Shown: positions 283 to 12,491 of the stretch, piece by piece
Position numbering within the stretch: position 1 is the first letter of the stretch
How the letters are laid out: each line of letters starts with the position of its first letter
Source: Promethearchaeota archaeon
Lineage (GTDB): Archaea > Asgardarchaeota > Odinarchaeia > Odinarchaeales > JBHLKK01
Length of the DNA stretch: 12,492 nt
Reading direction: 5' to 3'
NCBI GenBank assembly: GCA_048939465.1
Contig: JBHLPL010000056.1
Coordinates: 1 to 12,492, forward strand
Position numbers and translations under genes: made by a program
The notes under the pieces: generated by a model
What the model was told of the DNA's origin: nothing
What the model saw: the letters and a program-made list of their open reading frames with translations, nothing else
Database searches by the model: none

Positions 283-966
283 ATGAGTAGGGAAAGGCTC
301 CGTCGTGAAATCAAACGTAAACGGAAGAGGAAATATCTGCCGAAGCTGGATCTCAGCCTACTGAGGAAAGTAATTACCCTACTAGATGGCTATCGAATAA
401 ACCGATTCATGGATCCTGTAAGAATCGGAGATCTAGTGAAGTCAGGTGCAGCGGGAGAAGAGCTTCAGAAAGAGTGGGACGAGCTTTACCAGGTCATGTA
501 TGACATGTCCCGTATCCCGGCAAACACACCCAAGGCCCTCAAACTGCTAAAACGTCTTAGTCTAACAGAGAAGTTGAGCATAGTCAACATTGCTGTTACT
601 GCTCTTTTGCTTGCACTCAGCTTCGTTGTCGGGTTTTCGTGGCTCGTCGGCGTTGTTTTTGCAACAATAGCGTTTCCAGCAACGATCGGGGCTAGAGTCT
701 ATCTATATCGTCAGGTCTCTGATGAGATTGACGGATATATTGAGGAGCATCCCGAGAAGTTTGCCAAGAGAAAAGCACGGCTGAAACAACAGGTTCAAAG
801 ATCTATAGGGATTTTGAACAAATATGTAAGACAGTTTGAAAGAGAACCTGCGAACTATCCGTTTGAATTATACAATACAGATTATAGCGGGATTAGCGTC
901 ACGAAAAAACCAGGAACCATAAGAAAAGGATATGTAGTCATACCCAAAATAGGCAAATCACAATAG
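283..966 (+). CDS. Hypothetical membrane protein (two-helix TM hairpin, polybasic N-terminus)
   Basis: 227-aa ORF filling the gap between the flanking genes, with an SD-like GGGGG upstream. Hydrophobic segments at aa ~98-118 and ~120-142; N-terminus RERLRREIKRKRKRK. No family recognised. Confidence 0.75.
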   Translation: MSRERLRREIKRKRKRKYLPKLDLSLLRKVITLLDGYRINRFMDPVRIGDLVKSGAAGEELQKEWDELYQVMYDMSRIPANTPKALKLLKRLSLTEKLSIVNIAVTALLLALSFVVGFSWLVGVVFATIAFPATIGARVYLYRQVSDEIDGYIEEHPEKFAKRKARLKQQVQRSIGILNKYVRQFEREPANYPFELYNTDYSGISVTKKPGTIRKGYVVIPKIGKSQ

Positions 967-975
967 ATGAATCGA

Positions 976-2565
976 TTAGATAGGAGGTACTTCTCCGTAG
1001 AGCTTACTTACCGACATACCTTCTTTTTGGTTTTTCCAAGCATACATAGAAAAGACCAGCATTGCCATTCCGATTAAACCCCCACCTATGGCTATAGAAA
1101 GCACGTTAGCTGTCAGCATCGTGAAGAATGTCATAAAGAAACCAGGTAAGCATATGGTAAGAACTCCAAGAATCGACATCACCGGGAAACCCTTCACTGT
1201 ATGGCTGAAACCACTTCTCCAGACAGCTGGTTTGGAGAATGGCAAAACAAGACTTGTGAGCCCTTGAAGGAAATGAGCCATACCGCTTAAGGCAATCGTT
1301 TCTAGGGCTGTTGCAATAAGTCCTGCATAGGCATATAGAAAAATGGTTCCAATAGCAGAAACCCCTATCACAATGGAAGCAACATATGGGCTATGTGTCC
1401 TCTCACTGATCTTGGTGAGGCGTTCGGGCAAGAATCGGTCAAAGGACATGGAGAATAGCAGTCTAGTCATGCCAGGAAGCATGGCTGGAAAGAATGCCAG
1501 AGTCCATATTGCTGGTCCCAAGGCGAGTATAAACTGCAGAACTGGGTTTGCCGTAAGAGATAGCGCAAATATGGTGGCTACCGGATAAACAGAAGGGTTT
1601 GTTACCGTCGGTATCTCTCCAAACATAACGTAGGAATACATTGACACGAACTCCCCATATCGGGAAAGAAGCAGTGCTGCAAACCCAATATAAATCGCAG
1701 TAATGATTCCTATGCCTCCTACGAAACCGACGGAAAAGCTCTTCTTTGGTACCTTAATCTCACTTCCGAAGAAACTTAGTGCCGTTCCACCAAGGTAGAG
1801 AAAATACGAACTTCTCATGGCGTCCAAGGTCGCATCGAAGCTGAAGGACGTTGGCATCCACCCTGCAGCTGTGGCAGTATCTACGATTTCTTGATAAGCT
1901 CCGCTACCCCAAACCGAATCCCATAGCGACGGAACCGAATCGGGATGAGTTAAGCCCAGTACAGCAAACAATAGTATGCTGAATATCATGGTAATTGCAA
2001 AAAACCCGTAGTTCACCCATTTCATGGGCCTAGGTCCTAGCGCATTAATCGTTACGAACAGTAATACAAATACTACCGCCACAATCAACTGAAAGATGTT
2101 GATCTCAGGATAGGACATGAGAACCAGTGCTGGCTCAATCAAAGAAGGAATCAGCGATACACCTATTATGAGCAAGCAATATCCCAGAACGATCGGTATG
2201 AACACCGCAAGACTACCAAGCAAGATCAGTGAGATAGATAGCGAGCCAAATCCATTGAATACGTAACCAACAGCAGGATTCACGCAGCGAGAAACCCATG
2301 TGTAATCCCCGCCTGATCTAGGCATTGCGACTGACAAGAAAAGACCATTCAGCATGAAAATGGCAGCTGGTATGGCACCCATCGCCAGTGCCAGTATCAG
2401 ATCAGCTCCTGTGTTTTCCGCAAGGATCGCCGGTATAATAAGAAATATCCACGGCCCTATGACTAGGTTTAGCGGATAACTGAGGGCAAATAGTGATCCT
2501 AATTCTCTTCTTAGACCTGTTGCCCGTCTAACGAATAACTTCGGAAATTCTTCCTCAGCCATCAT
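976..2565 (-). CDS. APC-superfamily amino acid/polyamine permease
   Basis: ~530 aa, almost wholly hydrophobic with ~12 or more TM segments. N-terminal FVRRATGLRRELG is typical of archaeal APC permeases; also PRSGGDYTWVSR, GSEIKVP and RLLFSMSFDRFLP. Start is one of TTG2568/ATG2565/ATG2562. Confidence 0.88.
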   Translation of the reverse strand: MMAEEEFPKLFVRRATGLRRELGSLFALSYPLNLVIGPWIFLIIPAILAENTGADLILALAMGAIPAAIFMLNGLFLSVAMPRSGGDYTWVSRCVNPAVGYVFNGFGSLSISLILLGSLAVFIPIVLGYCLLIIGVSLIPSLIEPALVLMSYPEINIFQLIVAVVFVLLFVTINALGPRPMKWVNYGFFAITMIFSILLFAVLGLTHPDSVPSLWDSVWGSGAYQEIVDTATAAGWMPTSFSFDATLDAMRSSYFLYLGGTALSFFGSEIKVPKKSFSVGFVGGIGIITAIYIGFAALLLSRYGEFVSMYSYVMFGEIPTVTNPSVYPVATIFALSLTANPVLQFILALGPAIWTLAFFPAMLPGMTRLLFSMSFDRFLPERLTKISERTHSPYVASIVIGVSAIGTIFLYAYAGLIATALETIALSGMAHFLQGLTSLVLPFSKPAVWRSGFSHTVKGFPVMSILGVLTICLPGFFMTFFTMLTANVLSIAIGGGLIGMAMLVFSMYAWKNQKEGMSVSKLYGEVPPI

Positions 2566-2592
2566 CAATCGCCTGAGAAATACGGCTAGCTG

Positions 2593-2621: not shown

Positions 2622-3170
2622 TCAGTAGTCCACTCCTTCCCTTGGTCCGATCCCTCGGGAGAAGACATGCTTTACCTGCCTCATGTAGGTAACGATATCT
2701 CCAGCTCTGACTATTTGACTAGGGGCGTATCTTCCGGTCAAGATCAATTCAACTTTTTTGGGCTTTTTCTCGATCAGATCGAGTACTTCTTCTATCTTAA
2801 AAAGCCCGAAATCTAACGCTACATTTATTTCATCGAGTATAACAATATCCCACTTTTCGCTCATGACAACTTCTCTTGAATAATCAAAAGCCTTGCGTGC
2901 CTGCTCAACATCTGTGTCTGATTTCTCTTCAGGATTAACAAAATCTAGTGTTCCAAACCGTTTTACTTCGAGATTTGGCAAGTATTTCGAGGCCTTGACC
3001 TCTCCATATTCATATTCTCCCTTTAAGTATTGAATTATGTTAACTGAATATCCGTGACCTATCGCGCGCATTGCGAGGCCAAACGCCGTAGTAGTCTTCC
3101 CCTTGCCGTCGCCTGTATAAACGTGCACAAACCCCTCTTTTAGCCGCTTTTCTGATCTTGGTTGCCTCAT
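2622..3170 (-). CDS. cobO: Cob(I)yrinic acid a,c-diamide / cob(I)alamin adenosyltransferase, CobA/CobO/BtuR type
   Basis: HVYTGDGKGKTTTAFGLAMRAIGHG, IQYLKG, WDIVILDEIN, ELILTGR and REGVDY are family motifs. ATGA overlap with the meaB stop. Confidence 0.93.
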   Translation of the reverse strand: MRQPRSEKRLKEGFVHVYTGDGKGKTTTAFGLAMRAIGHGYSVNIIQYLKGEYEYGEVKASKYLPNLEVKRFGTLDFVNPEEKSDTDVEQARKAFDYSREVVMSEKWDIVILDEINVALDFGLFKIEEVLDLIEKKPKKVELILTGRYAPSQIVRAGDIVTYMRQVKHVFSRGIGPREGVDY

Positions 3171-4120
3171 TTCAAGTACTCCCTCAAAATAATGTCTGCT
3201 GCTTGATACGGACCCATCTTCTTTTGGACCATTTTTCTGACAAGATCCTCAAATAGGGGGCTCTCATTTGCTTTCTTGAGAGCCTCATTCTCGATTTTGG
3301 CCCTTAAGGTTTCTATTAATTCTGCGGCCGCCCTCTTCTTACTCAGTGCTTTCAAATCCATGGTCTCCAGGAATCTCTGATGTTCTTCGATTTTGTCGAG
3401 AAGTTGATCGATACCTGTATTCTCGGTGGATGATGTGGTTATTACTGGTGGCACCCAGCCTTCTTTGCTCTCAATTAATCCCTCATAGTCCAGCATCCTT
3501 TCGAGTTCATAGGCGGTTTCCGCTGCCCCCGGCTTATCGGATTTGTTGACAACAAATATATCCGCAATCTCCATTGCTCCTGCTTTCATGGCCTGGATTT
3601 CGTCTCCCAGCCCCGGGCACAACACCAAAACGACGGTGTGGGCCACCTGCATTATCGCTACTTCAGATTGTCCAGCGCCTACTGTTTCCACAATTACTAT
3701 ATCCTTTCCAGAAGCGTCTAGGATATTGACCGCATCTCTCGTAGCTCTGGCAAGCCCCCCTAAGGAACCCCGAGTGGCCATGCTACGGATGAAAATACCA
3801 TCAACGCCGACAATGTCTCTCATCCGGACTCTGTCACCTAGAAGGGCCCCACCACTGTACGGACTGGATGGATCTACTGCTATTATTCCAATAGTCTTGC
3901 TTCTTTCTCTCCATCTCAGGGCTAACTTATTGACCAGACTGCTCTTTCCACTTCCCGGAGGACCCGTTATGCCAACTGTGTGACTTCTTCCTGTATGCGG
4001 ATAAATTATCTGGCTGATTTCTTCTGCCTTCAAGAAATCATTCTCAATGAGACTTATCAGACGTGAAATGCTGGAGACATCCCCTTTATACAAACCCTCT
4101 GCAAGTTTTTGAAGGTCCAT
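3167..4120 (-). CDS. meaB: Acyl-CoA mutase-associated GTPase MeaB (ArgK/MMAA family)
   Basis: GITGPPGSGKSSL P-loop, AVDPSSPYSGGALLGDRVRM, FIRSMATRG, VETVGAGQSE, NKSD. ATG directly follows the stop of the B12-binding subunit (TAAATG). Confidence 0.95.
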   Translation of the reverse strand: MDLQKLAEGLYKGDVSSISRLISLIENDFLKAEEISQIIYPHTGRSHTVGITGPPGSGKSSLVNKLALRWRERSKTIGIIAVDPSSPYSGGALLGDRVRMRDIVGVDGIFIRSMATRGSLGGLARATRDAVNILDASGKDIVIVETVGAGQSEVAIMQVAHTVVLVLCPGLGDEIQAMKAGAMEIADIFVVNKSDKPGAAETAYELERMLDYEGLIESKEGWVPPVITTSSTENTGIDQLLDKIEEHQRFLETMDLKALSKKRAAAELIETLRAKIENEALKKANESPLFEDLVRKMVQKKMGPYQAADIILREYLK

Positions 4121-4537
4121 TTACTTTTCCTCTAACGACATTCTCTCCTTGCTCACGTTTTCTCTTATGAACTTGATTGCTTTCTTAAGTGGTGTGCCGG
4201 GTCCAAAAAGCTCCCTAATTCCATTTTGCCTCAAGAATGGATGGTCTTCATTGGGGATTATGCCTCCAGCAATGACTAGTACGTCGGTAATCCCCCTTTT
4301 CTCCAAGATTCGCGTAACGGTGGGGAGTAATATTCTGTGGGCTCCGCTTAGTATGCTTAGACCAATGACATCTGCGTCTTCGTGAATCGCTGCGTCTACG
4401 ATCTGATCCGGGGTCTGTTTCAGTCCAGTATAAACCACTTCCATTCCAGCGTCTCTCAAAGTTCTGCAGACTACCTTTGCACCCCTATCATGCCCATCCA
4501 AGCCCGGTTTTGCGATTAAGACTTTTATTCGTTTCAA
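4121..4537 (-). CDS. icmB: Acyl-CoA mutase small (cobalamin-binding) subunit
   Basis: KPGLDGHDRGAKVV (DxHxxG base-off/His-on motif), IGLSILSGAH, GGIIP. TTG start with GGGGAGG SD overlapping the large-subunit stop. Symbol follows the large-subunit specificity call; standard pipelines would annotate it as a methylmalonyl-CoA mutase C-terminal domain. Confidence 0.93.
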   Translation of the reverse strand: MKRIKVLIAKPGLDGHDRGAKVVCRTLRDAGMEVVYTGLKQTPDQIVDAAIHEDADVIGLSILSGAHRILLPTVTRILEKRGITDVLVIAGGIIPNEDHPFLRQNGIRELFGPGTPLKKAIKFIRENVSKERMSLEEK

Positions 4538-4547
4538 TTCCCTCCCC

Positions 4548-6209
4548 TCAGAAAATCAGTAATTCCTTATGTTCACCATAGACCTCTTTTAGAGAATTTA
4601 TTATCTCGCCTAATGAAGCGTAGACTTCAACACAATTCAAAACGTAAGGCATGATGTTCTCATCTCTTCTTGCAGCTTTCTTGAGTTCAGCTAGATGCTT
4701 TGATACTTTTTCTTTGTTCCTACTTTCTTTTATTTGCTTCAATCCTTCTACTTGTACTCTCTCGACCTCAGGATCAACCTTGAAGCGAGGTATTCTAACC
4801 TCTTCGCTCTCGTCCCCAAATCGATTTACTCCGACTATGATTTGTTTCTTTTTATCCACATTCTTTTGAAATTCGTAGGCGCTATTTGAGATCTCTCTTT
4901 GGGGATACCCCCTCTTTATAGCCTCAATCATACCGCCCATGCTATCGATTCGATCGATGTATTTCATTGCCTCCTCCTCCATTTTGTCTGTGAGCCATTC
5001 CACATAGTAGCTTCCAGCCAGTGGATCGATTGTCTCGGTTACTCCGCTTTCATGGGCGAGCATTTGCTGTGTTCTAAGTGCGATTGTAACGGCCTTTTCA
5101 GAAGGAAGCTGCCAGGCCTCATCATAACTGTTGGTATGAAGGCTTTGCGTCCCTCCAAGCACCGCTGCCAACGCTTGAATGGCCACCCGTACAATGTTGT
5201 TCTCGGGCTGTTGAGCAGTGAGCGCCACTCCACTTGTCTGTGTGTGGAAACGCATCCATAGACTCCTGTCCTTCTTTGCTCCAAAACGCTCCTTCATGAA
5301 CCTTGCCCACATTCTTCTGGCCGCTCTGAATTTTGCTATTTCCTCAAAGAAGTCATTATGGGAACAGAAGAACAGGGATAACCTTTGCGCAAAGCTGTCT
5401 ATGTTCAATCCTCTCTCGATCGTCTTTCCGACGTACATTAGTCCGTCTGAAAGAGTAAAAGCAAGTTCCTGTACGGCCGTGGCTCCCGCCTCCCTGATGT
5501 GATATCCACTAATGCTTACAGGATTCCACCTAGGAACACTCCTTGTGCAGAACTCAATGACATCAATGACCAGTTTAACTGAAGGCTCCGGTGGAAAAAT
5601 AAAGGATTTCTGCGCAATGAACTCTTTCAGTGCGTCATTCTGGACCGTTCCGCCGACGTTGTCCCAAGAGACATTTTGCTTTTTGGCGACTGTTAGATAC
5701 ATAGCAAGCAAGATAGGTGCCGGAGCATTAATTGTCATGGACGTCGTAATCTTATCAAGAGGAATACCGTCAAAAAGCATTTCCATGTCTTTTAATGAAT
5801 CAATAGCTACGCCACAGACTCCAACTTCGCCTGAGGACAGTGGATCATCTGAATCGTATCCCTCTATCGTCGGGAAGTCAAATGCGACGCTCAGTCCTGT
5901 CTCGCCTTCTGAAAGCAAATACTTATATCTCTGGTTTGTCTGTTCTGCTGTTCCGAATCCAGAGAATTGTCGCATTGTCCAAAGACGTTCACGATACATG
6001 GTTTTGTGAATACCTCGTGTAAACGGGTATTTTCCTGGGAATCCCAAATCCTCTTCATGGCTAAGATGCTCAATGTCTGCCGGAGTGTAAAGCAGCTTTA
6101 TTGGAATGTCGGAGGAATTCTTCTTTTCTGGAATCCTCTTCAGGTACTTCTCTCGCCATTCCTCCTCTCGCTTCCTGATATTCTTAACAGAATTAGAATC
6201 GAACACCAC
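4548..6209 (-). CDS. icmA: B12-dependent acyl-CoA mutase large (substrate-binding) subunit, isobutyryl-CoA-mutase-type active site
   Basis: YPFTRGI, WTMRQFSGFG, GLSVAFDFPT, TVQNDALKEFIAQKS, ISGYHIREAG, RFHTQTSG, LGGTQSLHTNSYDEA. Likely start is GTG 6209 or 6206 with SD GGGGG at 6220-6216; the ORF-track TTG 6242 lies about at the predicted TSS. Family assignment is ~0.97 certain, ICM specificity ~0.75. Confidence 0.9.
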   Translation of the reverse strand: MVFDSNSVKNIRKREEEWREKYLKRIPEKKNSSDIPIKLLYTPADIEHLSHEEDLGFPGKYPFTRGIHKTMYRERLWTMRQFSGFGTAEQTNQRYKYLLSEGETGLSVAFDFPTIEGYDSDDPLSSGEVGVCGVAIDSLKDMEMLFDGIPLDKITTSMTINAPAPILLAMYLTVAKKQNVSWDNVGGTVQNDALKEFIAQKSFIFPPEPSVKLVIDVIEFCTRSVPRWNPVSISGYHIREAGATAVQELAFTLSDGLMYVGKTIERGLNIDSFAQRLSLFFCSHNDFFEEIAKFRAARRMWARFMKERFGAKKDRSLWMRFHTQTSGVALTAQQPENNIVRVAIQALAAVLGGTQSLHTNSYDEAWQLPSEKAVTIALRTQQMLAHESGVTETIDPLAGSYYVEWLTDKMEEEAMKYIDRIDSMGGMIEAIKRGYPQREISNSAYEFQKNVDKKKQIIVGVNRFGDESEEVRIPRFKVDPEVERVQVEGLKQIKESRNKEKVSKHLAELKKAARRDENIMPYVLNCVEVYASLGEIINSLKEVYGEHKELLIF

Positions 6210-6262
6210 ACCATTCCCCCATAATTGGCCTGAGTATATCAATCTAGAGGTAAACGATCCAC

Positions 6263-6280
6263 TTATTTAAAGATTTTTTA
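6263..6280 (-). promoter_or_regulatory. BRE + TATA promoter of the mutase operon
   Basis: Minus strand reads TAAAAAATC-TTTAAATAA: an A-rich BRE followed by a TTTAAATA box, ~55 nt upstream of the probable start. Confidence 0.6.
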
Positions 6281-6341: not shown

Positions 6342-8027
6342 TTACTTCGATGGAATAGCCTTCCTAACTTCTTCGTCTCTAAGCTCTCTACGGAGAACTT
6401 TGCCAACAAGTGTCTGCGGAAGTGCGTCTCTGAACTCAAGTTCCTTGATATGCTTGTGTTTGGCTATCTTCTTATTAACGAAGTCCATGATTTCTTTTTC
6501 AGTTGCTGTAGCCCCTTCCTTCAACACACAAAATGCTTTGGGTATCTCCCCCTCTACAGGATCCGGCTTGCCTATAACTGCACACAGCTTCACGGCGGGG
6601 TGTTCGTATGCTATATCTTCAAGCTCTCTTGGAAAAACGCTGTAACCCTTATGCTTGATTAGGTCCTTCGCTCTTTCCACGATGTAGAAATAACCATCCT
6701 CGTCCACCTTTGCTAGATCGCCTGTATAAAGCCAGCCTTTTCTAAGTGCTCTCTTGGTTTCTTCAGGAAGCTTCCAGTAACCCTTCATCACTTGTGGTCC
6801 TTTTACTGCTAGTTCCCCCACCTCTCCTGGCGGAAGTTCCTTCTTTCCAGTTTCAGCATCCATAATCTTAGCTTCTGTATCCGGAAAAGCAAGCCCAATC
6901 GACCCTATTTTCACCGTTTTCAGCGTCGGGTCAAGCGGGTTGCAGTGCGTAACCGGTGAGGCTTCGGTAAGACCGTAACCCTCTACCAGTGCCCCCCCTG
7001 TTAATTTCATGAATGCCTTTTGGACTTCAGGAGGAAGCGCCCCTGCGCCGGAAAGGCAGAATTTTATGGAGGAAAGATCAAATTTCGTGGTCTCCGGTCG
7101 TGCCACCAGGATAGCGTACATTGTGGGAACCCCACACCATATCGTTACCTTGTTCTTCTCGATTTCCTCAAGAACATCAGCAACACCGAATTTTGGAATA
7201 AGAACCATAGTGCCTGCTTGAGAAACAGCGTCATTCATTGAAGTCGTCATGCCAAATATATGGAAAAGCGGAAGGGCGGTAAGGAATGTTTCTTCTGCTT
7301 CCTTTGAACCTGCAAGCCATTTTGTGCAAGCAATGGCGTTAGAAACAAGGTTATAGTGAGTGAGCATTGTCCCTTTTGGTGTCCCTGTTGTTCCCCCAGT
7401 ATATTGCAGTATCGCTAGGTCTTCCTTGGGATCGATTTTCACCTTTTTAGGTTCGGGTGGATACTTGCTTATTAGCTCCTTGAAGAAGTAAATCCCCGCT
7501 TCTTTCTCAACTTTCTTTCCCGGGATTTTTCGCAGTAGCTTGCCAAAAATCCTCTTTCCTGTCGATAGATAATCTGCGAATTTTGCAACTATGATGTTCT
7601 TCAGCTTTGCTTCATCTTTGACACTCTTGATTACAGACTCGAATAGATCAAGAACTACTATCGTCTTCGCTCCTGAATTCTTGATTTGAAAAGCTGCTTC
7701 TCTTTCCTTAAGCAAAGGGCTTACGGCGGTAACTATCGCTCCCGCCCTCATAGCACCGTAATAGCCTATGATGAACTGAGGCACATTCGGAAGCATTAAT
7801 CCAACTACGTCTCCCTTTTTGACGCCCAAGTCCTGTAAAGCTGTGGCAAACCTGCTCGCGTGCTCATCGAGTTCTTGATAGCTTATCTTATTACCTTTGA
7901 ATATTACTGCTGTCTTTGTGGGATGTCTATCGGCAGTATTCTTTAGCATTTCTGAAAGTGTTATCTCTGGATATTTGATTGAAATTGGGACCCCCGCGGG
8001 CCAAAACTTCGATTTAGCTTTCCCCAT
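6342..8027 (-). CDS. fadD: Long-chain-fatty-acid--CoA ligase (FadD-like, ANL superfamily)
   Basis: ILQYTGGTTGTPKG (AMP-binding signature), LPLFHIFG, EGYGLTEASP, WLYTGDLA, C-terminal GKVLRR. ATG 8027 with GAGGTG SD upstream. Confidence 0.93.
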   Translation of the reverse strand: MGKAKSKFWPAGVPISIKYPEITLSEMLKNTADRHPTKTAVIFKGNKISYQELDEHASRFATALQDLGVKKGDVVGLMLPNVPQFIIGYYGAMRAGAIVTAVSPLLKEREAAFQIKNSGAKTIVVLDLFESVIKSVKDEAKLKNIIVAKFADYLSTGKRIFGKLLRKIPGKKVEKEAGIYFFKELISKYPPEPKKVKIDPKEDLAILQYTGGTTGTPKGTMLTHYNLVSNAIACTKWLAGSKEAEETFLTALPLFHIFGMTTSMNDAVSQAGTMVLIPKFGVADVLEEIEKNKVTIWCGVPTMYAILVARPETTKFDLSSIKFCLSGAGALPPEVQKAFMKLTGGALVEGYGLTEASPVTHCNPLDPTLKTVKIGSIGLAFPDTEAKIMDAETGKKELPPGEVGELAVKGPQVMKGYWKLPEETKRALRKGWLYTGDLAKVDEDGYFYIVERAKDLIKHKGYSVFPRELEDIAYEHPAVKLCAVIGKPDPVEGEIPKAFCVLKEGATATEKEIMDFVNKKIAKHKHIKELEFRDALPQTLVGKVLRRELRDEEVRKAIPSK

Positions 8028-8247: not shown

Positions 8248-9072
8248 ATGGCTTTGAAAATCGAAGAAGTGAGTTTCCAGTCTCATGACGCAAGAATCGC
8301 TGGCCTTCTCTACATCCCAGATTCAGCACCGTCAGCGGGTTTAGTATTCTGTCATGGAATGAGCAAATGGGGATTCAGAAAAAGCAGCCTATACAGAAGG
8401 TTTATGGAAAATGCATGCAGAAGTGGCTATGCGTCTCTAATTTTCGATTTCAGAGGTTCTGGAAACTCCTCAGGATCCTTTGACTATGGTTTTAAGGAAC
8501 GCTTAGACGTCAAAGCAGCAATTAAGTACTTGTCTTCTCGAGAAGAAGTCATTTCTGATAAGATATTTGTAGTTGGGCATAGTCTGGGAGGGATAATGGC
8601 TGCCTACGCAGTAAGGAACGAAACCACGGTCAAAGGATTAGCTCTATGGTCAACACCTCCGAAGGAATATTACACTATTAAGAATTTTATTATAAATCAA
8701 AGGGGTGCGTTGGGCTATGTCGGTTTTGTTCTTCTGTCGTATCTAGACAGAGTTATTCATCTGGAAAACGCCGATATGAAGATCTTTGGCATCCCACTAA
8801 GACTCAGACTTGTCCGCAAAAAATTCATGACCCTTAGCGCAGATGAAGTGTTGTCAATCATGCCGCCTAAACCTACACTCGTTGTAATTGGCGATAGTGA
8901 TGAGTATGTTACTCTAAGAGAGGCGAGAATCCTTTATTCCTGCATTAAAGGAACAAGGAAATTCGTTGCCCTTCCTCAGACTAATCACTCTTTTGAAAAT
9001 AGAGAAAAAGAGGTAATTGACAAGACATTAGCATGGTTCAACAGGTTCCGAAATGATTCTACGGTAGAGTGA
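8248..9072 (+). CDS. Alpha/beta-fold serine hydrolase (esterase/thioesterase/peptidase-like)
   Basis: LVFCHG oxyanion motif, FDFRGSGNS, GHSLGG nucleophile elbow, GDSDEYV (Asp) and NHSF (His) complete the triad. Confidence 0.88.
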   Translation: MALKIEEVSFQSHDARIAGLLYIPDSAPSAGLVFCHGMSKWGFRKSSLYRRFMENACRSGYASLIFDFRGSGNSSGSFDYGFKERLDVKAAIKYLSSREEVISDKIFVVGHSLGGIMAAYAVRNETTVKGLALWSTPPKEYYTIKNFIINQRGALGYVGFVLLSYLDRVIHLENADMKIFGIPLRLRLVRKKFMTLSADEVLSIMPPKPTLVVIGDSDEYVTLREARILYSCIKGTRKFVALPQTNHSFENREKEVIDKTLAWFNRFRNDSTVE

Positions 9073-9097: not shown

Positions 9098-9886
9098 TTA
9101 CTCACCTTTGAATTCTGGCTCGCTTTTTGACATGAAGGACGAAATGCCTTCTACGACATCTTTGGTAGCCCGGAGAAGCCCAAAAGCCTCCGACTCGACC
9201 ATGAGTCCAATATTCAAAGGCACCTGAGTGGCCAGATTCAACAGCCTTTTTGCGTATTTCAGAGCTATTGGTGGTCCCGAAGCTAATTTCTTGGCCAGGA
9301 CTTTTGTCTGTTCCATCAGGTTCTCTGAGCGTACAACCTTGTTAACCAGCCCTACTCTCAAAGCCTCATCAGCACCAATTTGCTCTCCAAGCATCACCAG
9401 TTCTTTGGCCTTGGCGAGTCCGCATATTCTTACTAACCTCTGCGTGCCCCCCCATCCGGGTATCAGACCCAGCTTTATCTCCGGATTTCCAAAAGTTGCA
9501 TGTTCTGCAGCTATCCTGAAATCACAGGCCAGTGATAACTCCAGTCCTCCGCCAAGACAATATCCGTTTATTGCTGCGATATACGGTTTACTTGATTTTT
9601 CGATTTTTCCGAATATATCTTGACCTGTGGCGGACCCCTCCTCTGCAGTAATCGCAGTTAGGGTTGGAAATACGGTTACGTCTGCCCCCGAGCTGAAAGA
9701 CCTTTCTCCTGCCCCGGTGATTACAACCACTTTCGTTTCTTTGTCCTGCTCAGCTTTCTCAATAGTGGCCAGGAATGCTTCAGCCATGTCTACTGAGATT
9801 GCATTTAATCTGTGTGGCCTGTTGAGTGTTATCCAGCCAATTCCTCCCTCGCTCTTATACGTAACAGCTTCTTCCTTTTTAGCCAT
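9098..9886 (-). CDS. crt: Enoyl-CoA hydratase (crotonase); possibly the frameshift-separated C-terminal half of a HADH-ECH fusion
   Basis: WITLNRPHRLNAI, FSSGADV, GGGLELSLACD and FGNPEIKLGLIPGWGGTQRL (both catalytic Glu present). ATG 9886 overlaps the end of the dehydrogenase ORF. Confidence 0.9.
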   Translation of the reverse strand: MAKKEEAVTYKSEGGIGWITLNRPHRLNAISVDMAEAFLATIEKAEQDKETKVVVITGAGERSFSSGADVTVFPTLTAITAEEGSATGQDIFGKIEKSSKPYIAAINGYCLGGGLELSLACDFRIAAEHATFGNPEIKLGLIPGWGGTQRLVRICGLAKAKELVMLGEQIGADEALRVGLVNKVVRSENLMEQTKVLAKKLASGPPIALKYAKRLLNLATQVPLNIGLMVESEAFGLLRATKDVVEGISSFMSKSEPEFKGE

Positions 9887-11060
9887 ATTCGTAGAACCCC
9901 CTTCCAGTCTTTTGTCCAAGTCGATTATCTTTCAGATATTCTTCTAGCAATGGGCACGGCTTGTACATTTCCTCCTTGTGTTTTTCGTATAGTTCATTCA
10001 ACTTGTTAACAACTAAATCTAGACCGATGTCGTCGCCAAGTTCACAAGGACCAGACGGCCAACCTGTACCAAACTTCATTGCTTTATCTATGTCTGCAGG
10101 ATCTGCTACATCTTCATGAATCAGAAAAGCAGCCTCATTGACCGATACAGCGTAAATCCTATCAATATCAAACTTGTCTGCAATATCAAAAGGTATTCGC
10201 GGTCTGCCAGAACTCCAATCATAGAAGCCCTGTTTGGTCTTTTGTCCCAATTTTCCGCTTTCAACCAGTGGAATTATTATCGGGCATAGTTTGACTCTTT
10301 CCCCATATGCGCCTTCCATAATCTTCCCAACTTCGTATGCGATGTCTAACCCGACGTAATCTGCAAGTTCAAATGCACCCATCGGAATTCCTGCTTGATA
10401 TTTGACTGCTGCATCCACTTCTTCTTTTGTCGCTTCGTTCCTGTAGACTGCCCAAAAGGCTTCATTGAAAACAACACCCAAGATTCTATTCACAATGAAG
10501 CCAATAACGTCTTTTCGTACCACAACTACTTCCTTTTTGAGTTTTTCTGCCAGCTCGACGGTTGTTTTTATTGTCTCGTCACTGGTCTGCTCTCCTTTGA
10601 TTACCTCAACAAGAGGCATCATCGCCGGCGGATTGAAGAAATGCATCCCAACAACTTTATCCTTTCTTTCGGTGGCTTTACCCATGTCTGTTATTCTTAG
10701 ACTCGAGGTATTGCTGGCTATAATCGCATGCTTTGGTGCTGCCCTATCGACGTCAGAAAAGACCCTCTTCTTGAGTTCTAGTTTTTCAGGAACTGCCTCA
10801 ATAACAAAATCCGCATCTTTAACGGCTTCCTCCAAGTTTGTGGTGGTCTTTATTCTTGAAATGGCAGCATCAGCATCTTCTTGTCTTATCCTGCGCTTTT
10901 CAACAAACTTCCCAAGGCTCCATTTGATTTGTTCCATTCCCTTCTGCAAAAACTCATCCTTTACGTCCATCATGATAACACTGTATCCTGCCACGCCTAA
11001 TATTTGAGCTATACCGTGTCCCATCGCTCCCGCTCCTATGGTAGCAACTCTTTTTACCAA
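9879..11060 (-). CDS. hbd: 3-hydroxyacyl-CoA dehydrogenase (NAD-binding domain plus duplicated C-terminal domain)
   Basis: IGAGAMGHGIA Rossmann motif, IEAVPE, ASNTSS, GMHFFNPP (catalytic His), GFIVNR, two LGxKTxxGFYxY/W repeats. TTG start with GGTGA SD 6 nt upstream. Confidence 0.92.
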   Translation of the reverse strand: MVKRVATIGAGAMGHGIAQILGVAGYSVIMMDVKDEFLQKGMEQIKWSLGKFVEKRRIRQEDADAAISRIKTTTNLEEAVKDADFVIEAVPEKLELKKRVFSDVDRAAPKHAIIASNTSSLRITDMGKATERKDKVVGMHFFNPPAMMPLVEVIKGEQTSDETIKTTVELAEKLKKEVVVVRKDVIGFIVNRILGVVFNEAFWAVYRNEATKEEVDAAVKYQAGIPMGAFELADYVGLDIAYEVGKIMEGAYGERVKLCPIIIPLVESGKLGQKTKQGFYDWSSGRPRIPFDIADKFDIDRIYAVSVNEAAFLIHEDVADPADIDKAMKFGTGWPSGPCELGDDIGLDLVVNKLNELYEKHKEEMYKPCPLLEEYLKDNRLGQKTGRGFYEYG

Positions 11061-11118: not shown

Positions 11119-11556
11119 TTATTCTTCAGATCTTATTGGGATGAATTCATATGTGGCACCCTCAGGGGTGAGTTTACCCTGTAACTTAACCTTCATCCCG
11201 ACTTTAGTTTCTGAGAACTTGGCTCCTGTTAACCACGCCAGTACCCTCACTCCATCTTCGAGTCTTGCTATGGCAACAGTATATGGTCGATGCCGTTGAA
11301 ATGAAGTGGGCTTAACCATGATGTGTGTGAATGCCTCAACTTCCCCCTCACCGCTCAATTCAACCCATTCTACATCGGATGATAAGCATTCACCACAATC
11401 CGCAACAGGCGGAAAATACAGTTTTCCGCACTTCTTGCATTTGGTTGTATATATTTTCCCTTCCTTGAGCCCTTCCCAGAACTTCAGGGTTTTGCTTATC
11501 GGTATTGCAAACACCAAATTCAACGGTCTTGAATCAATAGTTGGCATACCCTTCAA
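11119..11556 (-). CDS. DUF35 Zn-ribbon + OB-fold protein (thiolase partner / acyl-CoA-binding scaffold)
   Basis: KFWEGLKEGK, CKKCG...FPP...CGEC Zn ribbon, WVELSGEGEVEAFT, PYTVAIARLEDG, GMKV. Start is TTG 11556 (GAGGTGA SD 5 nt upstream) or GTG 11565 overlapping the thiolase stop. Confidence 0.92.
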   Translation of the reverse strand: MKGMPTIDSRPLNLVFAIPISKTLKFWEGLKEGKIYTTKCKKCGKLYFPPVADCGECLSSDVEWVELSGEGEVEAFTHIMVKPTSFQRHRPYTVAIARLEDGVRVLAWLTGAKFSETKVGMKVKLQGKLTPEGATYEFIPIRSEE

Positions 11557-11561
11557 GATAA

Positions 11562-12491
11562 TCACCTCTTTAGTATCGTTACGTAGCAGTAATGCCCAGT
11601 ACCACCAACATTATGGGCTAGTGCAATGTAATTCTTCAGTGGCACTTGTCTCTCTCGTTTCACTGCCTCTTCTCTTAGTTGTTTTGTGAGTTCGTATATC
11701 ATGCCACAACCTGTCGCACCAATCGGATGACCTTTGGCCTTTAAGCCGCCATCGACATTGACCGGGATTCTGCCTCCTATCTCGGTTTCTCCTTCCCTAA
11801 TTAGCTTTGCACCCTCTCCCCTCTTGCAGAAGCCTAAGTCCTCATAAGCCATTATTTCTGCTATCGTAAAGCAGTCATGAACGCATGCAACATCCGGATC
11901 GTCCGGGCCAATCTTTGCCATTTTGTAAGCCATCTTTCCTGCTTTAACGGCTGCTGGAAGGCCTACAAAATTCGGTCTCCTACTTAGATTCGCGGTACCT
12001 GAAGAGTAACCTGTGCCTGATATCCAAACTGGAGTATCTATCTTCAGTTCTTTTACCTTGTCTTCGGAAGCCAAAACCACTGCAGAAGCACCATCTGACA
12101 CTGGACAGCTGTCATAAAGCTTAATTGGCCAAGCTATCACATGAGATCCTAGCGCTTCTTCAATAGTAACTTCTTTCTGAAGTTGAGCGACAGGATTCAA
12201 TGCTGCATATTTGTGATTCTTGACAGCCACTCTCGCTAAGTCTTCTTCTGTGGTTCCATACTTATTCATATGGGCAACCGCATACAGAGCGTAATATGCT
12301 GGAAAGGTCATCCCGAAGTTTTGAAACTCCCATAAATAGTATCCTGCTCTTCCTATTATCTCAATAGTCGTAGGCATATCCGTTTCTCTCATTTTCTCTA
12401 GTCCGATTGCCGCTGCGATGTCAAATTGGCCACTTGCTATGCCAGAATAAGCTGTAAAGACAGCTGCACTGCCTGTAGCACAGGCTGCCTC
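11562..12491 (-). CDS. Acetyl-CoA C-acyltransferase (archaeal/SCP2-type thiolase), 5' truncated by window edge
   Basis: The frame stays open upstream of the ORF-track ATG 12392 to the window end. My translation is EAACATGSAAVFTAYSGIASGQFDIAAAIGLEKM, with the catalytic Cys at 12482-12480. Further motifs: HDCFT, GHPIGATG, HNVGG. Confidence 0.93.
   Translation of the reverse strand, partial: EAACATGSAAVFTAYSGIASGQFDIAAAIGLEKMRETDMPTTIEIIGRAGYYLWEFQNFGMTFPAYYALYAVAHMNKYGTTEEDLARVAVKNHKYAALNPVAQLQKEVTIEEALGSHVIAWPIKLYDSCPVSDGASAVVLASEDKVKELKIDTPVWISGTGYSSGTANLSRRPNFVGLPAAVKAGKMAYKMAKIGPDDPDVACVHDCFTIAEIMAYEDLGFCKRGEGAKLIREGETEIGGRIPVNVDGGLKAKGHPIGATGCGMIYELTKQLREEAVKRERQVPLKNYIALAHNVGGTGHYCYVTILKR

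Follow-up and report, generated by a model that had tools for sequence, protein, structure and literature searches.

A predicted isobutyryl-CoA mutase in an Asgard archaeal gene cluster whose relatives are annotated as methylmalonyl-CoA mutases

Which acyl-CoA is rearranged by a B12-dependent archaeal mutase whose closest relatives are named methylmalonyl-CoA mutase (MCM)? The question is raised by a gene (4548..6209, minus strand) on contig JBHLPL010000056.1 of a Promethearchaeota archaeon (assembly GCA_048939465.1), encoding a protein of 552 or 553 aa that Pfam and NCBIfam place among the large, substrate-binding subunits of acyl-CoA mutases, and whose active-site residues are of the Phe/Gln type, the type of isobutyryl-CoA mutase (ICM). 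The window is the entire contig of 12,492 b, which belongs to a 1.96-Mb genome of 91% completeness. This genome, an archaeal one, encodes ribosomal protein L31e. In a preliminary description, made from the letters of the contig and its open reading frames (ORFs), the gene had been read as an ICM that would be mistaken for an MCM. From the active-site residues and the gene context, the most likely function of the enzyme is the adenosylcobalamin (AdoCbl)-dependent isomerisation of isobutyryl-CoA and butyryl-CoA, feeding beta-oxidation; this assignment is held with good, though not full, confidence.

The minus-strand ORF extends from a TTG at 6242 to 4548. Because the orthologs begin with MFDS, translation probably starts at the second GTG (6206, 552 aa), with the GTG at 6209 as the alternative; residues are counted from 6209 below unless ORF numbering is mentioned. 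The product matches Pfam MM_CoA_mutase at 749 bits and NCBIfam TIGR00641 at 794 bits, while the MCM equivalog NF006944 gives it 634, under its cut-off of 876.

Two specificity-determining sites are described in the family, occupied in MCM by Tyr and Arg (credited to Jost et al., 2015, in PMC7238569). In the archaeal mutase the first is a Phe codon (5964..5966, minus strand) in WTMRQF, at the site of MCM Tyr89, IcmF Phe598 and HcmA Ile90, and the second is a Gln codon (5610..5612, minus strand) in EFIAQKS, where MCM has Arg207 and IcmF has Gln742; the two residues are F82 and Q200, or F93 and Q211 in ORF numbering. In MCM the Tyr/Arg pair binds the carboxylate of the substrate. Both codons had been placed correctly in the preliminary description (Phe93, 5966-5964; Gln211, 5612-5610), with which the translation of 4548-6245 on the minus strand and the positions of the motifs agree, and the offset of +4 to P. 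shermanii MCM that it used holds for the numbering of the TTG ORF, the offset being +7 from 6209. Moreover, the residues it had listed as retained, Q201, Y247 and H248, are found as Q190, Y236 and H237, the equivalents of MCM Gln197, Tyr243 and His244, and are invariant or nearly so across the clade of the mutase.

The placement of the specificity sites is unambiguous, the mutase being 57% identical to a solved structure and the PDB alignments having no gaps around these sites. F82 falls over the Tyr of human and M. tuberculosis MCM (RQYAG) and over the Ile of HcmA (RQIAG), from a 2-hydroxyisobutyryl-CoA mutase (HCM); Q200 falls over Arg in the two MCMs and over Gln in HcmA; and A109, within SVAFDF, falls over the first Asp of HcmA STDFD and over the Ala of MCM SVAFD. 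The Ile and Asp of HCM, which had been reported missing, are indeed replaced by Phe and Ala.

The reference used for IcmF was an IcmF-type gene from a Streptomyces replicon, about 85% identical to the crystallised protein (4xc6), whose Phe and Gln match positions 618 and 762 of the 4xc6 chain, that is Phe598 and Gln742 after subtraction of a 20-residue tag; these we take to be the specificity residues of IcmF. The archaeal mutase agrees with this ortholog at all seven inspected sites (F82, A109, D111, Q190, Q200, Y236 and H237), Q200 being aligned to the second Gln of IcmF KEDQGQNT. At the same sites the Tyr/Arg-type proteins show Y, A, D, Q, R, Y and H, and HcmA, together with the HCM-like plasmid proteins of Xanthobacter and Mycobacterium ELW1, shows IDDQQYH. 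Xaut_5043 of Xanthobacter autotrophicus, presumably a native pivalyl-CoA mutase (PCM), lacks Phe and Gln at the aligned sites (LSQHQH or LLCQNQH in two alignments). Three signatures were set aside on this basis: that of MCM (Tyr89 with Arg207), where the mutase has Phe and Gln; that of HCM/RCM (Ile at HcmA 90, Asp at 117), where it has Phe and Ala; and the pattern of Xaut_5043, where it reads FAQQYH. Of the 121 homologs in the databases that are closest to the mutase (at least 62% identity), 119 share the latter six-site pattern, which is therefore regarded as a selected feature and not as noise. These homologs, carrying the names Hodarchaeota, Promethearchaeota and Borrarchaeum (Asgard archaea), are called methylmalonyl-CoA mutase in the databases, as had been foreseen, with some NCBI names now neutral ('acyl-CoA mutase large subunit family protein').

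The content of the genome points in the same direction. MM_CoA_mutase has a single match in it, the gene under study, and five acyl-CoA dehydrogenases are present; neither methylmalonyl-CoA epimerase (TIGR03081) nor a carboxyltransferase (PF01039; propionyl-CoA carboxylase or methylmalonyl-CoA (de/trans)carboxylase) was found in the 91%-complete genome. The association between signature and context was examined at 80 loci of other species, a sample and not a census, in which the mutase was typed by its signature and 6 kb on each side were searched with reference proteins; the selection patterns do not separate the Phe/Gln from the Tyr/Arg types. Among these loci, a true methylmalonyl-CoA epimerase adjoins none of 46 Phe/Gln mutases versus 16 of 33 Tyr/Arg mutases (Fisher 5e-8), and beta-oxidation genes adjoin 17/46 and 3/33, respectively (p = 0.008). 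An apparent 'mce' neighbour at 23 of 41 Phe/Gln loci was discarded as an artefact of a Brevibacillus query whose N-terminal half matches B12 small subunits. In Brevibacillus laterosporus, a protein of 280 aa annotated only as an epimerase (L012:8667-9509) joins an N-terminal half matching B12-binding small subunits to an epimerase C-terminal half.

The gene cluster around the mutase, encoded on the minus strand with the one exception mentioned below, is that of a two-subunit enzyme with its cofactor machinery. Immediately downstream lie the small B12-binding subunit of 138 aa (4121..4537; Pfam B12-binding; TIGR00640, 177 bits), whose translation carries D-G-H-D-R-G, the DxHxxG base-off/His-on motif; a MeaB-type G-protein chaperone, which loads B12 on the mutase (3167..4120; Pfam MeaB 289 bits; TIGR00750 337 bits, over cut-off); and a CobA/CobO-type ATP:cob(I)alamin adenosyltransferase for the synthesis of AdoCbl (2622..3170; PF02572 202 bits; TIGR00708 and NF004637 over cut-off). 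The last gene of the conserved cluster is an APC-family amino-acid permease (976..2568; Pfam AA_permease). Upstream of the mutase stands an AMP-forming acyl-CoA synthetase of the FadD type (6342..8027; Pfam AMP-binding and AMP-binding_C), the substrate of which cannot be inferred, as its NCBIfam relatives are all under cut-off and its PDB relatives are a mixed set. It is followed, farther upstream, by an alpha/beta-hydrolase on the plus strand (8248..9072; Pfam), by an enoyl-CoA hydratase or crotonase (9098..9886; Pfam ECH_1), of 262 aa going by its ortholog, which aligns to 9886-9101, and by a 3-hydroxybutyryl-CoA dehydrogenase of 393 aa (9879..11060; Pfam 3HCDH_N and 3HCDH), whose best NCBIfam matches are 3-hydroxybutyryl/acyl-CoA dehydrogenases (PRK05808 first, 378 bits), all under cut-off. 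A DUF35/OB-fold protein of the zf-ChsH2 type, a partner of archaeal thiolases (11119..11565; weak BbsA-like match, with zf-ChsH2 and OB_ChsH2_C in the ortholog), and a thiolase that has lost its 5' end at the contig end (11562..12492; NF009228, 441 bits on the partial protein) complete the series.

This order is conserved. A mutase ortholog with 88% identity, on a 153-kb Promethearchaeota contig (L019), has the identical gene order, permease included, followed by an acyl-CoA dehydrogenase and an electron transfer flavoprotein (ETF); the window's thiolase aligns to residues 82-390 of its L019 counterpart, and a 95%-identical counterpart of the L019 acyl-CoA dehydrogenase, with ETF adjoining, was found on contig C67 of the genome under study. 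The stop of the dehydrogenase and the start of the crotonase overlap by 8 nt (9879-9886), and since the L019 cluster is arranged alike (5327-5334), the split between the two genes is not an assembly error of the contig. In both clusters the opposite-strand alpha/beta-hydrolase, which may be a thioesterase or an esterase, separates the crotonase gene from the ligase gene, in the same place and orientation. Beside the permease, a protein of 227 aa that matches no family of Pfam or NCBIfam (283-966, plus strand) is likewise kept in L019 (14237-14920); the Atlas clusters closest to it consist of hypothetical archaeal proteins without names. A Borrarchaeum-like genome and a Jordarchaeales genome share the core made up of the two subunits and MeaB, and in a Jordarchaeales genome (L021:11108-12610) a 500-aa fusion of MeaB and a CobA-type adenosyltransferase comes after the mutase small subunit. 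With regard to expression, TTTAAATA (6264..6271, minus strand), some 55-60 nt ahead of the start codon of the mutase gene, reads as a candidate archaeal TATA box. A scan for sigma-70 promoters and terminators returned 17 against 19.3 expected, hence no enrichment, under a model not relevant to archaea. The sequencing runs with matching DNA are sediment and mangrove metagenomes, and none of the runs listed is of RNA.

Overall, the IcmF-like sites, the unmatched HCM, PCM and MCM signatures, the gene cluster and genome content, and the cross-species epimerase contrast argue for the ICM-type assignment made in the preliminary description. The residues, the domain families, the gene order and its conservation, the gene content of the genome and the way in which context goes with signature in other species are observations, from which we infer the substrate, the flux direction and the connection with valine as follows. 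The Phe/Gln pair, hydrophobic and without charge, in place of the carboxylate-binding Tyr/Arg would make the pocket suitable for isobutyryl- and n-butyryl-CoA and not for methylmalonyl-CoA. The large and small subunits would form a two-subunit AdoCbl-dependent enzyme in which B12 is held base-off/His-on by the small, co-transcribed subunit, with the CobA-type adenosyltransferase supplying AdoCbl and MeaB gating its loading. Substrate would enter either as isobutyrate activated by the adjoining AMP-forming ligase or as isobutyryl-CoA derived from imported valine, and the mutase would turn isobutyryl-CoA into butyryl-CoA by a 1,2-rearrangement. Butyryl-CoA could then be converted to two acetyl-CoA via acyl-CoA dehydrogenase/ETF, crotonase, 3-hydroxybutyryl-CoA dehydrogenase and thiolase/DUF35, a route that would bypass the methylmalonyl-CoA pathway, apparently missing from the genome.

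As far as distribution is concerned, a homolog of the mutase occurs in 149 of the 201 sampled genomes of the phylum, many of which hold two to four copies. In the 50 of these 149 genomes that were read, three types were distinguished: the pattern of the mutase under study, a His-111 variant and the Tyr/Arg MCM type; the Asgard Tyr/Arg copy often lies about 20 kb from the Phe/Gln copy within one genome. All three genomes of the genus under study have one copy each, of the Phe/Gln type. Outside the Asgard archaea the Phe/Gln type was found in Bathyarchaeia, Thermoplasmata, Thermoprotei, Aenigmatarchaeota and on a plasmid of Haloterrigena turkmenica, as well as in Thermus and many bacterial phyla. 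The megaplasmid pHTUR01 of the cultured H. turkmenica (L013:7001-12143) carries the Phe/Gln mutase, labelled 'methylmalonyl-CoA mutase family protein', together with a B12 subunit, MeaB, an acyl-CoA dehydrogenase and a MaoC dehydratase; this organism would be tractable for genetic work on the archaeal ICM prediction.

The His-111 variant is a second Phe/Gln subtype (FAHQQYH), in which His replaces the Asp two residues past the site of HcmA Asp117 (AFH[LM]PT versus AFDFPT). It often has RMF and not RQF, shares many Asgard genomes with Tyr/Arg MCM paralogs, and was seen in Asgard loci L035-L051, L061, L063, L066 and L071 and in bacterial loci L079, L082, L090, L097 and L136. Among the best 150 representatives of clusters at 50% identity, dozens show patterns of no characterised mutase (VVQGHC, IVQCYN, LTHCQH, QTQGYN), which points to a wide and unexplored range of substrates, although a part of these proteins could be non-catalytic subunits or misaligned. 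Furthermore, several Tyr/Arg-type proteins of about 1000-1100 aa (P0142, P0163, P0172 and similar ones) have an N-terminal extension of some 400 residues ahead of the mutase domain and may be MeaB-MCM fusions with a domain order unlike that of IcmF.

A tree of 136 sequences, with MCM, HCM and PCM types in it and the signature columns unmasked, gathered the Phe/Gln mutases in one clade beside HCM-like groups and apart from the Tyr/Arg clades. A second tree was built with IQ-TREE from a 58-sequence subsample with the signature columns masked; it included no IcmA, and IcmF was a very long branch. Here the Tyr/Arg sequences formed one clade (UFBoot 88), and of the Phe/Gln lineages, the archaeal clade of the mutase under study came closest to the Tyr/Arg mutases of split type (UFBoot 99). 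Depending on the root, the masked tree fits a single switch of signature, and it does not prove orthology to IcmA.

Several points weigh against the assignment as an ICM. The first is the position in the masked tree just described, because of which the assignment rests on signature and context and not on clean orthology. IcmF is distant from the mutase, with 282 bits as compared with 553 for HcmA (4r3u), and to our knowledge IcmA/B and IcmF, both distant from the archaeal clade, are the only Phe/Gln enzymes that have been characterised. Exchanging Tyr89 and Arg207 in MCM reportedly gave no ICM activity, so that further residues count. The searches of the open literature returned no biochemical characterisation of an archaeal ICM, and no member of this clade that had been assayed. 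Finally, genes missing from a 91%-complete genome are 'not found' and not proven absent, and the species in the 80-locus comparison are not fully independent, so that its p-values are generous.

The alternative that survives best concerns the same enzyme and is compatible with its assignment as an ICM. Acetyl-CoA would be converted in the reverse direction to butyryl-CoA as an electron sink, part of which would become isobutyryl-CoA for the excretion of isobutyrate or as a precursor of valine or branched lipids. Both the mutase and the enzymes of beta-oxidation can work in reverse, clostridial isobutyrate is formed via ICM, and predictions for Asgard archaea are in general of a fermentative metabolism. 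Production of isobutyrate by chain-elongating clostridia (reported in PMC7764203) is also in its favour. However, the AMP-forming ligase and the amino-acid permease in the operon suggest uptake and activation of a substrate, and the cluster is without a CoA-transferase or ADP-forming synthetase, which leaves this direction an unlikely one, if worth keeping in mind.

Somewhat less probable is a mutase for another non-carboxylated acyl-CoA (isovaleryl/pivalyl, or a C5 branched/straight pair), for which isobutyryl-CoA would be merely a side substrate. IcmF also isomerises isovaleryl- and pivalyl-CoA, uncharacterised active-site patterns are very many in the family, the ligase gives no clue to its substrate, and the His-111 sister variant in Asgard genomes indicates that sub-specificities may exist. 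Nevertheless, all seven sites are those of IcmF, the pattern of Xaut_5043 is quite different, and the neighbouring genes make up a C4 set (3-hydroxybutyryl-CoA dehydrogenase family, crotonase and thiolase). Very unlikely is a 2-hydroxyisobutyryl-CoA/3-hydroxybutyryl-CoA mutase (HCM or RCM type) passing 3-hydroxybutyryl-CoA to the neighbouring dehydrogenase. HcmA is the closest solved structure, Xanthobacter pXAUT01 and Mycobacterium ELW1 have HCM clusters similar to the archaeal set of ligase, both subunits and MeaB, and the gene of a 3-hydroxybutyryl-CoA dehydrogenase is indeed close by; yet HcmA and both HCM-like plasmid proteins have Ile/Asp where the archaeal mutase has Phe/Ala, and the acyl-CoA dehydrogenase/ETF and crotonase of the conserved cluster would be superfluous after the HCM reaction. 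A genuine methylmalonyl-CoA mutase that tolerates Phe/Gln is barely credible: the database names, the family-level profile matches and, in the masked tree, the proximity to Tyr/Arg mutases of split type speak for it, but both carboxylate-binding residues are replaced, the score is under the cut-off of the MCM equivalog, epimerase and carboxyltransferase were not found in the genome, the epimerase neighbour is confined to the Tyr/Arg side of the sampled loci, and a separate Tyr/Arg paralog beside the Phe/Gln copy in many Asgard genomes implies distinct functions.

With the isobutyryl-CoA/butyryl-CoA assignment as the preferred reading, the finding is an annotation correction and not a new enzyme class, the signature being widespread in archaea and bacteria. 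The novelty supposed in the preliminary description is thereby reduced: the literature searches returned no biochemically characterised archaeal ICM, but the signature is common and a gene of Cuniculiplasma, a cultured archaeon, had already been annotated as isobutyryl-CoA mutase subunit B in a proteome paper. The correction matters for metabolic reconstructions, since genes of this clade are routinely named MCM: those made for archaea such as the Asgard group, Bathyarchaeia and Thermoplasmata may include a link between propionate and succinate that the enzyme probably cannot catalyse, and may miss a B12-dependent isomerisation of branched to straight C4 chains that takes valine or isobutyrate into beta-oxidation. 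In the genus under study the error alters the predicted carbon flow, because the Phe/Gln mutase is the only mutase found there. For annotation pipelines, the two residues combined with the presence or absence of a nearby epimerase gene provide a simple rule that separates the types well. A bolder proposal, possible but rather doubtful, is that in this genus the ICM-type enzyme is the sole acyl-CoA mutase and the cluster of 12-15 genes a pathway complete in itself, by which valine or isobutyrate would yield two acetyl-CoA and which would replace the methylmalonyl-CoA pathway. If so, these archaea would be oxidisers of isobutyrate or butyrate, possibly syntrophic, in sediments, and published Asgard maps that draw propionate/methylmalonyl metabolism from the mutase gene would be wrong for such lineages. 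In a more novel variant, the archaeal clade, or its His-111 sister, would have a substrate range not yet described.

Compared with known systems, the archaeal mutase shares features with four groups of enzymes. The split-type Tyr/Arg MCMs (the second Asgard paralogs and plasmid genes of Ilyobacter and Brevibacillus) are 55-60% identical to it and have the same architecture of large subunit, small subunit and MeaB; they typically adjoin methylmalonyl-CoA epimerase and carboxyltransferase genes, whereas the archaeal Phe/Gln mutase adjoins neither. HcmA of Aquincola tertiaricarbonis (4r3u), aligned over residues 20-553, belongs with HcmB to an enzyme of the same split architecture and a similar neighbourhood of ligase and meaB-like genes. 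The Asp of HcmA reportedly binds the hydroxyl group of the substrate, and with Ile/Asp in HcmA and Phe/Ala in the archaeal mutase this hydroxyl could not be held alike. IcmF of Cupriavidus metallidurans (4xc6) has in common with the archaeal mutase the reliance on a MeaB-type G-protein, but it combines B12 domain, MeaB and mutase in one chain of about 1090 aa, while the archaeon has three separate genes. For IcmA, nine Phe/Gln cluster representatives and Streptomyces plasmids were searched without retrieving a bona fide sequence, the plasmid matches being of the Tyr/Arg type or IcmF. In Streptomyces, icmA and icmB are unlinked and supply polyketide precursors, in contrast to the archaeal genes, which are clustered with meaB, adenosyltransferase and beta-oxidation genes. 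In other respects IcmA/IcmB of Streptomyces cinnamonensis (EC 5.4.99.13) is alike: a large subunit of about 560 aa with a separate B12 subunit of about 138 aa, Phe/Gln at both specificity sites (Phe80 and Gln198, which we take to be those of IcmA) and the same reaction, as predicted for the archaeal enzyme.

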